Source of the DNA: an uncultured Candidatus Saccharibacteria bacterium
GTDB taxonomy: Bacteria > Patescibacteriota > Minisyncoccia > Phycocordibacterales > UBA5272
DNA: 64,000 nucleotides
Direction: 5' to 3'
Assembly (NCBI GenBank): GCA_964517625.1
Contig: CAZFBW010000002.1
Coordinates: 25,893 to 89,892 of the forward strand
The position numbers and the translations under genes are program-made. Positions within the stretch are counted from its first letter, which is position 1. Each line of letters starts with the position of its first letter. Below are positions 5,205 through 62,449 of the stretch, piece after piece. The notes beneath the pieces were generated by a model. The model did no database searches, was not told where the DNA came from, and saw only the letters and a program-made list of their open reading frames with translations.

Positions 5205-5918
5205 ATGAAACTTAAAGCTATAATTTTGGCATCGCTTGTTACGGTAAGTATTGGCGCTTTGTTTGCTCAAGGGCAACTATCGGGGGATGCGGTGTGTGGT
5301 GCGGGGGATAAGGCGTGTACCTTCGCAGATCTTAAGAAAATTCTTTCAAGTACATTTCTTTTTCTTCTTCAGATCGCAATTGCTTTTTTGCTTCTCATGA
5401 TTATGTATTCTGCCGCGCAAGTAATGACATCCCAAGACAAAGCGGGCGCACTTAAAGAAGCAAAGACGAGACTGTGGAACGTTCTTCTTGGTTTTTTACT
5501 CATTACTCTTGTTGCAGGCGGGGGATACCTTGCTTTCTTGTCATACTTTAATATCGAGAGTAAATTCCTAACCCCTATTACAAATCTTTTTTCGGTGAAT
5601 CTTTCTGATGTGTTGCCGTTTGCACAGGCGCACGCACAAGATGCGGAAAAGCTTCCAAATCCGCTCGGCACAACAACTAATCTTTTTGACTTTTTGGGAA
5701 TGCTCGTCTCACTCGTGATTCGATGGTTCGTGTTTCCAGTGATTATCTTTTCATGGTTATACACTGGTTTCCAATATGTCTACGCGCAGGGTAATCCCCA
5801 GAAATTGATGGAAGCACACAAATGGCTCTGGTGGACACTTATCGGAACTTTTACTATTATGTTAGCAGAGGGGTTCACTCTCGCTTTACAGGGAACCTTT
5901 AAACAATTTTTCTCATAA
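5205..5918 (+). CDS. secreted two-helix membrane protein, internally duplicated VirB2/TrbC-like (T4SS pilin-like) module
   Basis: Signal peptide MKLKAIILASLVTVSIGALFA; contains two copies of the pattern [hydrophobic helix]-[charged loop ...K..LW..L.G]-[hydrophobic helix] shared with the next three ORFs. Confidence 0.5.
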   Translation: MKLKAIILASLVTVSIGALFAQGQLSGDAVCGAGDKACTFADLKKILSSTFLFLLQIAIAFLLLMIMYSAAQVMTSQDKAGALKEAKTRLWNVLLGFLLITLVAGGGYLAFLSYFNIESKFLTPITNLFSVNLSDVLPFAQAHAQDAEKLPNPLGTTTNLFDFLGMLVSLVIRWFVFPVIIFSWLYTGFQYVYAQGNPQKLMEAHKWLWWTLIGTFTIMLAEGFTLALQGTFKQFFS

Positions 5919-59585: not shown

Positions 59586-59620
59586 AAAACACGTAAGGAA
59601 CCCACTTGTTATTATATACT

Positions 59621-59629
59621 ATTTTTGGT
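59621..59629 (+). promoter_or_regulatory. extended -10 TGGTATACT upstream of trmD
   Basis: Lies inside the ORF-track N-terminal extension (59606), so the start at 59645 is preferred. Confidence 0.45.
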
Positions 59630-59644
59630 ATACTGTCAAGATAT

Positions 59645-60316
59645 ATGCGATTTCATGTGGTAACCATTTTCCCAAATATGTTCGATTCATACTTTGCTGA
59701 GTCGATTATTTCGCGCGCCATTAAAAATAAATTAATTGAAATCAAAACGTATTCGCTTCGTGAGTATACAAAGGACAAACACAGACGCGTTGACGGTAAG
59801 CCATACGGTGGAGGACCGGGCATGGTTATGTGGGTGGACCCGCTTATTCGAGTTGTGGATTCAATTCAAAAACAGTGCGCACGCAAAAAATCTGCGAAAA
59901 TAAAAGTAATTATTTTTTCTCCGGGTGGAAAACAATTTACGAACACTGTCGCAACACAGGTAGAAGAAAAGTATACGGATATTGTTTTCATTTGTGGTCG
60001 TTATGAAGGAATTGACGCGCGTGTAAAAAAGATTTTGAAAGCGGAAGAGTGGAGTATTGGTCCATATGTACTTACAGGAGGGGAATTGCCTGCGATGATT
60101 GCAATTGATGCGATATCACGTCGTGTTAAAGGAGTGCTTCATGACGAAGATTCGCTTGAGGAAAAACGTGTAGCAAGTCATGAAATGTACGCGCGCCCAG
60201 AAGTGTATGAGTACAAAGGTAAAAAATATCGTGTACCAAAAGTGCTTTTGTCTGGAAACCACAAATTGATTGAAGAGTATCGTAAAAAGAAAGAAAACAC
60301 TGTCGGGAAAAAGTAG
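59645..60316 (+). CDS. trmD: tRNA (guanine37-N1)-methyltransferase
   Basis: MRFHVVTIFPNMF N-terminus, GGGPGMVM motif. Confidence 0.9.
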   Translation: MRFHVVTIFPNMFDSYFAESIISRAIKNKLIEIKTYSLREYTKDKHRRVDGKPYGGGPGMVMWVDPLIRVVDSIQKQCARKKSAKIKVIIFSPGGKQFTNTVATQVEEKYTDIVFICGRYEGIDARVKKILKAEEWSIGPYVLTGGELPAMIAIDAISRRVKGVLHDEDSLEEKRVASHEMYARPEVYEYKGKKYRVPKVLLSGNHKLIEEYRKKKENTVGKK

Positions 60317-60618: not shown

Positions 60619-61206
60619 ATGATAGAAAGAAGTATTTTAGAAGATTTATATTACAAAGAGAAAAAATCAATGAAAGAGGTTGCAGATATTTTGCAATGCT
60701 CAGTACATAAAGTTTCGTATTGGATGGGGTATCACAATTTTGGTAGGAGATCTATTTCCGAAGGGGTATATATAAAAAACAATCCATACGGAGACCCTTT
60801 TATGTTTAGGCCACCATCCACAAAAAGCGAAGCGGTTCTTTATGGTGTGGGACTTGGACTTTATTGGGGGGAGGGTACAAAGGCAAATAAACACTCTATT
60901 CGTTTGGGAAATACGGATCCAAAACTTATTAAAAAATTTGTTCTTTTTCTTGAAACTTTTTTTGCAATAAGGAAAACTGAGATGCGATTTGGTCTCCAAA
61001 TTTTTAGCACCATGTCTGGTAGGGTAGCAACAGCTTTCTGGGCTAATGAATTAGGTGTTAGTCATAAGCAGTTTATGAAAACAGTTATTACGCCGGCGCG
61101 TAATTTAGGGACATATCATAAAAAAATAAAACACGGCGTTTTAACTGTCTATTTTCATAATAAAAAAGCACGAGATATATTGGTAAAAGAGATTGAAAAA
61201 CTTTGA
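60619..61206 (+). CDS. hypothetical HTH protein; possible LAGLIDADG-like homing-endonuclease relative
   Basis: N-terminal HTH-like KEVADILQCSVHKVSYWM; central GVGLGLYWGEGTKANKHSIRL resembles a single LAGLIDADG motif (weak); AT-rich upstream region; 44 nt upstream of an intron-containing tRNA. Confidence 0.3.
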   Translation: MIERSILEDLYYKEKKSMKEVADILQCSVHKVSYWMGYHNFGRRSISEGVYIKNNPYGDPFMFRPPSTKSEAVLYGVGLGLYWGEGTKANKHSIRLGNTDPKLIKKFVLFLETFFAIRKTEMRFGLQIFSTMSGRVATAFWANELGVSHKQFMKTVITPARNLGTYHKKIKHGVLTVYFHNKKARDILVKEIEKL

Positions 61207-61249
61207 AAAATAAGATAGAATTGTAATCACTTGTTAAAGCAAGAAACAA

Positions 61250-61528
61250 GCCAATGTAGCTCAGTTGGTAGAGCACGTCCATGGTAAATCGCATAGATTT
61301 TGCCCACACAGTCAGTAATGATTTTGTGAATCCCGAATAACGGTTAATAGCCAAACATAGGCCAAGACCGTGGCAGTGAGATGGTTTTATTTCACGGCCC
61401 GAACGACTGACAAGGGTATCCATTTTGTATGGATAAAGATACAGTCTAGCCCCCACATATGTGTTTTTAATAAATTGGGGTGAAAGCGAAGGACGAGGTC
61501 ATCGGTTCAATCCCGATCATTGGCTCCA
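61250..61528 (+). tRNA. tRNA-Thr (GGU) interrupted in the anticodon loop (between nt 36 and 37) by a 203-nt intron; CCA encoded
   Basis: Exon1 GCCAATGTAGCTCAGTTGGTAGAGCACGTCCATGGT (61250-61285) plus exon2 AAGGACGAGGTCATCGGTTCAATCCCGATCATTGGCTCCA (61489-61528) join into a perfect 76-nt cloverleaf: 7-bp acceptor, CGTCC/GGACG anticodon stem, loop AUGGUAA. Confidence 0.75.
61286..61488 (+). ncRNA. group-I-like self-splicing intron within tRNA-Thr
   Basis: 5' exon ends in U and the intron ends in G (omega-G); R-like AACGACUGACAAGGG and S-like AAGAUACAGUCUAGCC give a compensatory P7 pairing GACUG/CAGUC; 3' hairpin CCCCC...GGGG; no ORF inside. Confidence 0.55.
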
Positions 61529-61627
61529 ATTTCTGTACCACATGCTTTAGTTGTTGTTTGGTTGACACCAGCTACGTATTTTTGTTAGTTTAAATGTAGA
61601 GCAATCAACCAAGAGAGGAAACTGGTT

Positions 61628-62449
61628 ATGACATCAATGCCCGTTCATTTTATCGTTGTTCGTCACGGCGAGTCCATCGGAAATGCCGCCAAGCGTCTTG
61701 AAGAAAAAGGTGATACGTCACTCATCGAACGTTTGAAAGGTACACACACTGCGCACTGGCCACTTACCAAGAAAGGGAGGGAGCAGGCGCAAAAGACGGG
61801 TGAGTATCTCAATCGTCTCATGCACGAAGGGGGCTTTCATTTCGATAGGCTGTATGTCTCGTCATATGCTCGCGCGCGACAGACCGCAGCTGCACTTGAA
61901 CTTGTACGTGCGCGATGGCGCGTGGATACGAGAATCACCGAGCGTGATTGGGGTATTCTTGATCGGATGACAGAAGAGGAACGTCACGAGAAATTCGGTG
62001 AAGACATTCGCATGCGACATGTCGAACCTTTTTTCTGGTGTCCACCACAAGGTGAATCGATGAATGCTGTTGTTCTTCGTGTTCGCGATTTCATTGATTC
62101 GGTACACCGTGCAAACATTCCGACAACCGTAGTTGTTGTTTGCCACGGTGAAGTTGCCAAGGCGTTTCGTATCAACTTCTGTCAGCTAACCCCGGAAGAG
62201 TATGCGGAAATGGAATTCTCAAAGAATCCACTCGAACGCATTCACAATTGCCAAGTGGACCACTATTCAAGAAGGGGTCCGCATGATGAACTTTCTACTC
62301 GACTTGATTGGTTGCGTGTTTGTCGTCCGTCTGAAGGGCAGGATGTGGCAATTGACTGGAAACCGATTCCAAGGCGTGAGTACACCAACCATGAGATTGC
62401 CATCATGGGCGATCGGCTCTCGCAACAATTTTCTGATATCGGTATTTAA
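61628..62449 (+). CDS. histidine phosphatase family protein (phosphoglycerate-mutase-like)
   Basis: VVRHGESIGN (RHG catalytic motif), later CHGE; 273 aa. Confidence 0.75.
   Translation: MTSMPVHFIVVRHGESIGNAAKRLEEKGDTSLIERLKGTHTAHWPLTKKGREQAQKTGEYLNRLMHEGGFHFDRLYVSSYARARQTAAALELVRARWRVDTRITERDWGILDRMTEEERHEKFGEDIRMRHVEPFFWCPPQGESMNAVVLRVRDFIDSVHRANIPTTVVVVCHGEVAKAFRINFCQLTPEEYAEMEFSKNPLERIHNCQVDHYSRRGPHDELSTRLDWLRVCRPSEGQDVAIDWKPIPRREYTNHEIAIMGDRLSQQFSDIGI

Follow-up and report, generated by a model that had tools for sequence, protein, structure and literature searches.

The DNA analyzed here, referred to as the window, is a 64,000-nucleotide (nt) stretch of contig CAZFBW010000002.1 from an uncultured Candidatus Saccharibacteria bacterium. 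At positions 61250-61528 of its forward (+) strand lies a threonine tRNA gene with the anticodon GGU, tRNA-Thr(GGU), which is split in its anticodon loop by a 203-nt insert. The insert has the anatomy of a group I-type intron, belongs to a family of introns with a covarying structure, and is probably removed by group I chemistry. An open reading frame (ORF) directly upstream encodes a candidate homing endonuclease that may be linked to the spread of the intron. The parts of the locus are as follows.

60619-61206, + strand: 195-amino acid (aa) ORF with an N-terminal helix-turn-helix (HTH) and a single predicted LAGLIDADG-fold domain, motif GLGLYWGEG; ends 44 nt 5' of the tRNA
61250-61285, + strand: 5' exon of tRNA-Thr(GGU), tRNA positions 1-36; its last base is anticodon U36, which is U-1 of the intron (ARAGORN, spliced and unspliced)
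61286-61488, + strand: group I-type intron, 203 nt, between tRNA positions 36 and 37 (ARAGORN, family model R1, covariation)
61489-61528, + strand: 3' exon of tRNA-Thr(GGU), from position 37 to position 76, with CCA encoded (ARAGORN)

The split tRNA gene

When the exons are joined, ARAGORN recognizes a tRNA-Thr(ggt) of 76 nt, complete with D, anticodon and T arms, an acceptor stem of 7 bp and the encoded CCA, so that the exon coordinates proposed in an earlier, sequence-only reading of this DNA proved exact to the base. In intron mode the program calls the unspliced DNA tRNA-Thr(ggt) i(37,203). The exon/intron borders are ambiguous by two A residues (GGT/AAAT ... GCG/AAGG), and the 36/37 border was chosen because it is the sole option that yields the U-1/omegaG pair. 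With this choice U61285 closes the 5' exon and G61488 closes the intron, as the group I splice-site rule invoked earlier demands, and both the U-1•G wobble and omegaG are invariant in the relatives described below. The split gene was missed by ARAGORN with default settings and by Rfam at the gathering threshold; four other tRNAs of the window were detected.

No ORF was found on the + strand of the intron, and the sole overlapping ORF is a 122-aa minus-strand frame with a GTG start and no support. The statement that no endonuclease ORF lies inside the intron was therefore true, but it overlooked the LAGLIDADG-fold ORF that ends just upstream.

Structure of the intron

Paired regions (P), joining segments (J) and loops (L) were assigned to the window intron as listed here, together with their behavior in the relatives.

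61283-61304, + strand: P1; exon GGU (61283-61285) and intron AAAUC (61286-61290) pair with GAUUUUGCC (61296-61304)
61305-61328, + strand: P2 hairpin with GNRA tetraloop L2, GUAA (61315-61318); compensatory changes in 9/10 pairs, and loop type covaries with P8 type
61332-61334, + strand: P3 5' strand, CCC, pairing with GGG 61414-61416; pseudoknot with P7
61340-61371, + strand: P4 (ACGGUU 61340-61345 / GACCGU 61366-61371), enclosing A-rich J4/5, P5 (61350-61362) and J5/4; P4 invariant, 4/4 P5 pairs covary
61372-61399, + strand: P6 hairpin; compensatory changes in 4/5 basal pairs, the first pair being G-C, A-U, C-G or U-A
61405-61409, + strand: P7 5' strand, GACUG (guanosine-binding helix), with J6/7 CGAAC before and J7/3 ACAA after; invariant in the family
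61414-61416, + strand: P3 3' strand, GGG; covariation
61417-61435, + strand: P8 hairpin, UAUCCAU-UUUGU-AUGGAUA; 4/4 basal pairs covary
61436-61446, + strand: J8/7 AAGAUA and P7 3' strand CAGUC; equal to the RF00028 consensus AAGAUAUAGUC except for one U-to-C change
61449-61487, + strand: P9.0 (GC 61449-61450 / GC 61486-61487), enclosing P9 (61451-61480); covariation
61488, + strand: omegaG, the final intron nucleotide; G in 48/48 introns collected via the neighboring protein, a collection in which this base was not filtered

The R/S-like core elements are AACGACTGACA (61402-61412) and AAGATACAGTCTAGCC (61436-61451), within which GACUG (61405-61409) pairs with CAGUC (61442-61446). The topology P3-[P4-P5-P6]-P7-P3'-P8-P7' is complete and in order, including the P3/P7 pseudoknot. 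An unconstrained minimum free energy fold of the window sequence returned P1, P2, P4, P5, P6, P7 and P8, and the precursor folds with z = -3.8 relative to shuffled sequences. At the 5' splice site, P1 contains the wobble U61285•G61302, flanked by G-C pairs; this U•G is kept in 38/38 and 47/47 relatives of two sequence sets, and two neighboring intron pairs of P1 covary. Folding, which the sequence-only reading had suggested as a check on the intron, and comparison with the relatives together located P1 to P9, with a foldable P3-P7 core that is backed by covariation.

Covariation among relatives

Relatives were collected in two ways. Species-representative genomes were scanned for the 5' half of tRNA-Thr(GGU) followed, 181-241 nt on, by a Thr-like variable region and T arm, which gave at least 120 loci. 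The window tRNA (TTCAATC) does not itself have the T60 that the pattern demanded of the T loop, so that the family is under-sampled. At least 49 of the scanned loci are split at 36/37 with U-1 and omegaG. The core of the window intron is common to 37 of them and to one further locus, L102, making at least 38 family loci in species-representative genomes; one in the alignment, L072, is from the complete Ca. Wolfebacteria genome CP011209.1. At least 12 scanned loci are classical IC3-like introns of Alphaproteobacteria. Names within the Candidate Phyla Radiation (CPR)/Patescibacteria are carried by 27 of the 38 family loci (Paceibacteria lineages, Saccharibacteria, Doudna- and Magasanikii-bacteria, and others), in agreement with the CPR-like host proposed earlier; seven are named 'bacterium' only and four carry other, unconfirmed labels. 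Invariant in the 38 genome relatives and the window are UGCC, GAAUAACGGUUAA, AGACCGU, CGAACGACUGACAAGGG and AAGAUACAGUCUA. The second set was gathered via the neighboring protein rather than via RNA and comprises 51 introns, 47 of them distinct.

Alignment A1 was made from 38 sequences using MAFFT. RNAalifold, unaided, recovered P1, P2, P4, P5, P6, P7, P8 and P9 from it, with compensatory changes in 28/47 pairs. The P3 pseudoknot and P9.0 (the 2 nt after CAGUCUA with the 2 nt before omegaG) were then added. In this full structure 94.5% of the cells of A1 are paired, compared with 29-43% when the pairing partners are slid by 1-3 columns, and 32/50 pairs show compensatory changes; the observed values were reached by 0/500 shuffles. 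The 47 distinct introns of the second set gave 97% paired cells and compensatory changes in 33/50 pairs. P3 is paired in 99-100% of cells. Both sets contain double changes from C-G to U-A, and in the second set it is 100% paired with U-A variants even though it is absent from the search model R1. P9.0 is 100% paired (variants GC/GC, AU/AU, AC/GU and GU/AC; in the second set 26 sequences have G-C and 18 have A-U), and 5-6 of the 6 P9 pairs covary. This compensatory evolution of exons and intron in 85 relatives implies selection on RNA structure, and together with the folding of the P3-P7 core it upholds the earlier assignment of the insert to the group I type.

The type of the L2 loop is linked to the type of P8. 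Where L2 is GAAA, P8 contains a motif CUA[AC]N...[UC]A[UAC]G, which resembles the 11-nt GAAA receptor, in 20/27 sequences; where L2 is GUAA, GCAA, GCGA or GUGA, such a receptor-like P8 occurs in 1/40 (association p = 3e-10). The window has a GUAA L2 and a plain P8 helix. Judged from the aligned sequences, this is tertiary covariation between an L2 tetraloop and a P8 receptor in the intron family, and P8 is likely to be the receptor helix for L2.

Family model R1, trained on the window and 37 sequences from species-representative genomes, scores 187 bits over 61281-61495 with no other match in the window. Family members score 150-200 bits.

Relation to known group I introns

Introns of tRNA-Thr(GGU) at position 36/37 have been reported in three complete Patescibacteria genomes, two of Paceibacteria and one of Saccharimonadia, in a survey of 95 complete genomes (Nakagawa et al. 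2026, mSystems, PMC13011429, Table 1). They were missed by RF00028, the Rfam group I intron model, and found with the gpI_bact_tRNA model of tFind (PMC13011429; Williams 2020, bioRxiv 10.1101/2020.01.27.920355). The name 'divergent group I introns' follows Castelle et al. 2018, and in the published tree they form a long branch with IA introns (PMC13011429). The window intron belongs to this described class, with which it shares host gene, anticodon, 36/37 site, size class, invisibility to RF00028 and host phylum. We see no structural difference. The paper gave no structure or covariation analysis of the Thr introns. The expectation that such an intron would be unusual does not hold, since the class is already in PMC13011429 and tFind and occurs in at least 38 species-representative genomes. 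In intron mode ARAGORN misreads four family loci (L069, L072, L102, L103) as tRNA-Arg(gcg), putting the intron at position 35, where tRNA-Thr(ggt) split at 36/37 would be right; a tRNA-Arg(GCG) 34/35 miscall of some copies has also been published (PMC13011429).

The IC3 introns of tRNA genes (Azoarcus tRNA-Ile, Anabaena tRNA-Leu, alphaproteobacterial tRNA-Thr) are similar in their length of ~200 nt, anticodon-loop position (36/37 for the Thr introns), anticodon-based P1, GNRA-looped P2, apparent L2-P8 contact, P9.0 and omegaG. They differ in P4/J4/5/P6, where the window family has ACGGUUAAAG.. and IC3 introns have UUCGGGGAAGCCUAA.., and in that the family P3 is 3 bp long. IC3 introns score 36-62 bits with RF00028, with which the window family scores nothing; the alphaproteobacterial tRNA-Thr introns used as controls gave 57.5 (L035), 62.0 (L089), 39.5 (L004) and 36.4 bits (L092). 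The IC3 signature (J3/4 AAA; P4 UUCGGGG.., AAxCCUAA; ..CCGAGCCAAGCC; GGUGUAGAGACUAGACGGG; a long P3) was not found in the family, which has GAAUAACGGUUAAAG, AGACCGUGGCG, CGAACGACUGACAAGGG and a 3-bp P3 in its place. Alphaproteobacterial tRNA-Thr(GGU) introns of IC3 type at 36/37 were seen at L004, L035, L055, L062, L070, L080, L089, L092, L093, L105, L111 and L117.

In one of these, L089 (SAR116), a core that RF00028 recognizes occurs together with the P7 of the CPR family, GACUG/CAGUC, and R1 matches this intron with 34 bits (E ~1e-9). Two others, L035 and L093, score 16 bits with R1, and most IC3 copies only ~16 bits. Via L089 the family sequence CGACUGAC aligns to RF00028 AGACUAAA and AAGAUACAGUCU to AAGAUAUAGUCu, the 5' strand of P7 falling on AGACUA of the consensus. 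There is one mismatch per side between the R/S cores of the family and of RF00028, and the two are mutually compensatory: the U-to-C change in the 3' strand of P7 compensates the A-to-G change in its 5' strand. This alignment bears out the proposal that GACUG/CAGUC is a compensatory variant of the canonical GACUA/UAGUC.

Other Patescibacteria tRNA introns (Tyr, Asn) are found in the same phylum, are mostly ORF-less and compact, and are missed or miscalled by standard tRNA finders; they differ in tRNA and site and have the canonical GACUA/UAGUC P7, and some Asn introns house HNH genes. Two Patescibacteria tRNA-Tyr(GUA) genes split by 185-192-nt group I introns with P7 GACUA/UAGUC were seen at L024 (7661-7864, - strand) and L103 (7201-7405, - strand). 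Both were missed by RF00028 at E<=1 and matched R1 weakly (22-24 bits, E ~1e-5) without shared exon context.

Relatives in phages

The invariant 17-nt core CGAACGACUGACAAGRG is also present in 26 IMG/VR contigs (L202-L227), where R1 scores 59-140 bits. These phage copies share the core with the window family and differ in that they interrupt protein-coding genes, matching major head protein and portal protein families, instead of tRNAs. In L217 and L225 as many as three copies lie within 1.5 kb. Copies matched by R1 include the following.

L217: 6275-6472, 6741-6942 and 7564-7755
L208: 3668-3864
L205: 1117-1312

The upstream ORF

Pfam finds a weak HTH in the 195-aa ORF and a LAGLIDADG_3 match of 14.3 bits (E 0.049), below the 22.5 cut-off. 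An AlphaFold model built with 73 homologues has a pLDDT of 91, and the protein is predicted to have the LAGLIDADG alpha/beta fold. Within the GLYWGEG motif, neither E85 nor G86 varies in sets of 15 and of 73 sequences, and E85 supplies the acidic residue expected of a metal ligand at the end of the motif helix. These features suggest that the protein is a candidate free-standing homing endonuclease. Its family runs to over 1000 protein clusters, almost every one of which bears the label 'hypothetical', and among the papers available to us none was found that mentions this gene.

Homologues (23-54% identity) stand in the same place and orientation at 20 of the 34 intron-bearing genome loci with enough upstream DNA, compared with 0/17 intron-less Patescibacteria tRNA-Thr(GGU) controls (p = 3e-5, kinship being ignored). 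Approached from the protein side, 80 metagenomic loci were fetched, of which 77 had enough downstream DNA to be informative. A tRNA-Thr(GGU) gene starts no more than ~50 nt past the end of the ORF in all 77, with an intron in 51 and none in 26. On a neighbor-joining tree of the ORF, intron presence requires at least 18 changes. The ORF is broken by frameshifts or stops in four copies, all at intron-bearing loci. Plain synteny was considered as an account of the ORF and rejected, as it fails to explain 20/34 versus 0/17 or the patchy distribution; a role as maturase only was likewise rejected, as it fails to explain ORFs beside intron-less genes. Distant paralogues (25-26% identity) abut other tRNA genes, one at L073 (5543-6163, - strand) by tRNA-Thr(UGU) c[5480-5552] and one at L054 (2252-2545, + strand) upstream of tRNA-Met (2664-2738). 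The ORF family may, on these positions, be associated with tRNA genes in general.

Flanking features and other observations

A promoter-like site lies 5' of the split gene.

61193-61221, + strand: promoter-like site TTGAAA-17-TAGAAT, 10/12 consensus matches, 29 nt 5' of the tRNA start; weak, from a consensus scan

A small hairpin, CUUGUUAAAGCAAG, directly 5' of the tRNA gives a sub-threshold Rfam match to RAGATH-30 (61204-61249, + strand, 20.7 bits, E 0.14) and overlaps the promoter-like site. This match is most likely due to chance, and the sub-threshold Rfam matches in general (RAGATH-30, snoR20, a distorted tRNA) look like chance.

Two genes 5' of the split tRNA lies trmD (59606-60316, + strand; Pfam E 5e-42), encoding the tRNA m1G37 methyltransferase, and the order trmD-ORF-tRNA also occurs in L102. 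The synteny is probably coincidental, because the split tRNA has A37.

Three further observations were made at other loci. At L083 (3307-3559), in a metagenome-assembled genome labelled Ca. Micrarchaeota, an archaeon, ARAGORN reports a tRNA-Phe(gaa) whose intron has 180 nt; its call at L040 (6267-6463), a tRNA-Ile(tat) whose intron has 101 nt, is doubtful. In L069 (Ca. Jorgensenbacteria) a 23S rRNA gene (1-2830, - strand) a few kb from the split tRNA-Thr shows large insertions in the Rfam alignment, which are typical CPR rRNA insertions.

Splicing and its alternatives

With the exon-intron anatomy, the membership of the family and a secondary and tertiary structure that is conserved and covaries established, we infer that 61250-61528 is a functional tRNA-Thr(GGU) gene and that its insert (61286-61488) is a compact ribozyme intron of the group I type, excised by group I chemistry, to which we give a probability of about 85%. 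Splicing without protein help is likely. In the proposed pathway, which follows that of group I introns in general, G34, G35 and U36 of the anticodon would pair with the internal guide GCC (61302-61304), so that P1 has its U•G wobble at the 5' splice site. Docking of the GUAA loop of L2 on P8 would help the P4-P6 and P3-P8 domains to pack around P7, and an exogenous guanosine bound in P7 would attack after U36. P9.0 would then place the terminal G61488 in the P7 pocket, and the freed 3'-OH of U36 would attack after G61488, so that the exons are ligated and the anticodon loop AUGGUAA is re-formed.

Several observations weigh against this proposal. The covariance-model search suggested by the sequence-only reading came back negative: RF00028 gave no match at E<=10 on the 500-nt slice 61150-61650, placing the window intron below the gathering threshold of 50 bits, and none at E<=1 on eight family loci; at the gathering threshold, Rfam found no group I intron anywhere in the window. 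P3 has 3 bp in the family and 7 bp in the RF00028 consensus, and the R1 score on L089 derives partly from shared exon context. P4 and P7 never vary in the relatives, and covariation is silent on both. The published splicing assays concern Asn and Asp introns only, with no tRNA-Thr member (PMC13011429). The negative result with RF00028 is no refutation, because it is the documented behavior of this class and the P3-P7 core is foldable and covarying. The failure lies with the model, whose P3 has 7 bp and whose seed is non-bacterial; it is also in the literature for the tRNA-Thr class, and the difference in P3 length is one visible reason for the miss.

Some LAGLIDADG proteins act as maturases for organellar group I introns. 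The window intron could accordingly be group I-derived and dependent on a protein cofactor, with the upstream protein as its maturase. The minimal P3 and the 'divergent' nature of the intron would fit such a dependence, as would the predicted LAGLIDADG fold of the ORF and its position directly 5' of intron-bearing genes (20/34) and not of intron-less controls (0/17). However, 14 of the 34 intron-bearing loci with enough upstream DNA lack the ORF, at four intron-bearing loci it is frameshifted or contains a stop, and it persists without an intron beside tRNA-Thr(GGU) at 26/77 ORF loci. The covariation of L2 with P8 and of P9.0 points to an RNA that makes its own tertiary fold. Because intron and ORF each occur without the other, a maturase role is the less likely one, and we regard protein-dependent splicing as improbable.

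It is very unlikely that the tRNA gene is in decay and has lost its function, the insert staying in place and another gene supplying the tRNA-Thr for ACC/ACU. Only 64 kb of the genome is in view, so a second tRNA-Thr(GGU) copy is possible, and the lack of an RF00028 match would suit a dead element; yet both exons are intact, the CCA and the four stems included, the window preserves each core element of the family consensus (R1 187 bits), and exons and intron alike evolve by compensatory change across the 85 relatives. We consider it extremely unlikely that the insert is an element of another kind, namely an archaeal/eukaryal bulge-helix-bulge tRNA intron, a group II intron or a miniature transposon. 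Protein-spliced tRNA introns also use the anticodon loop, but canonically at 37/38 and not at 36/37. Group II introns are much longer than the 203 nt of the insert, and the Rfam search of 61150-61650 gave no group II match. Neither terminal inverted repeats nor a target duplication mark it as a transposon, the A-A repeat at the borders being tRNA positions 37-38. The full P1-P9 group I topology and a J8/7-P7 segment near-identical to the group I consensus further oppose all three.

Possible spread by homing

The fixed position of the ORF beside tRNA-Thr(GGU), its patchy occurrence and its decayed copies suggest a free-standing homing endonuclease, a reading that they fit without proving. On the same evidence the ORF-less intron may be the partner of the endonuclease, as in collaborative homing (Hausner et al. 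2014, PMC3984707), or a hitch-hiker. Our tentative proposal, which we would place somewhat below even odds, is that, in cellular CPR genomes, the intron and the upstream HTH-LAGLIDADG gene together act as a two-part mobile unit that spreads by collaborative homing. The free-standing endonuclease would cut in or near intron-less, ORF-less tRNA-Thr(GGU) genes, and repair would copy the endonuclease gene together with the intron, ~80-170 nt away (collaborative, or trans, homing). The carrier's own gene would be protected either by the intron or by compensatory changes in the anticodon stem. The empty-site sequence (L008/L064) is ...GAGCAACTCCATGGTAAGGAGTAGGTC.... At the loop-proximal pairs of the anticodon stem, 30-31/39-40, CC/GG is present in 79/82 intron-bearing alleles, in 12/19 ORF-less intron-less controls (picked by sequence pattern) and in 5/26 ORF-bearing intron-less alleles, counts that ignore kinship; GC/GC and TC/GA stems occur among the ORF-bearing intron-less alleles.

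Collaborative homing in phages (PMC3984707; PMC2790892; PMC6083498) likewise has an endonuclease-fold gene outside an ORF-less intron, ~80-170 nt away, with each element able to occur alone, a patchy distribution and some decayed endonuclease copies. The known cases involve phage protein-coding genes and HNH or EndoVII-like enzymes, whereas the candidate here is a LAGLIDADG-fold enzyme by a cellular tRNA gene. Under homing, the intron lineage of the tRNA genes would be the one that also occurs in phage head and portal genes. The published survey sought endonuclease genes inside introns only and inferred that horizontal transfer was probably infrequent (PMC13011429).

Implications

The window intron confirms that, with default ARAGORN and Rfam, an essential tRNA gene drops unnoticed out of the annotation of CPR genomes. 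The class responsible, so far merely listed, now has a covariation-backed model of its secondary and tertiary structure, and it is common, with at least 38 species genomes and 51 metagenomic contigs carrying it. Two of three copies of an otherwise unannotated endonuclease-fold family adjoin such an intron. If the endonuclease reading is true, this family would constitute new LAGLIDADG enzymes that target tRNA genes, and the supposedly 'immobile' tRNA introns of reduced genomes would have a testable route of spread. Collaborative homing, if it occurs here, would be the first case at a cellular tRNA gene and would contradict the published inference that tRNA introns without endonuclease genes spread little by horizontal transfer.

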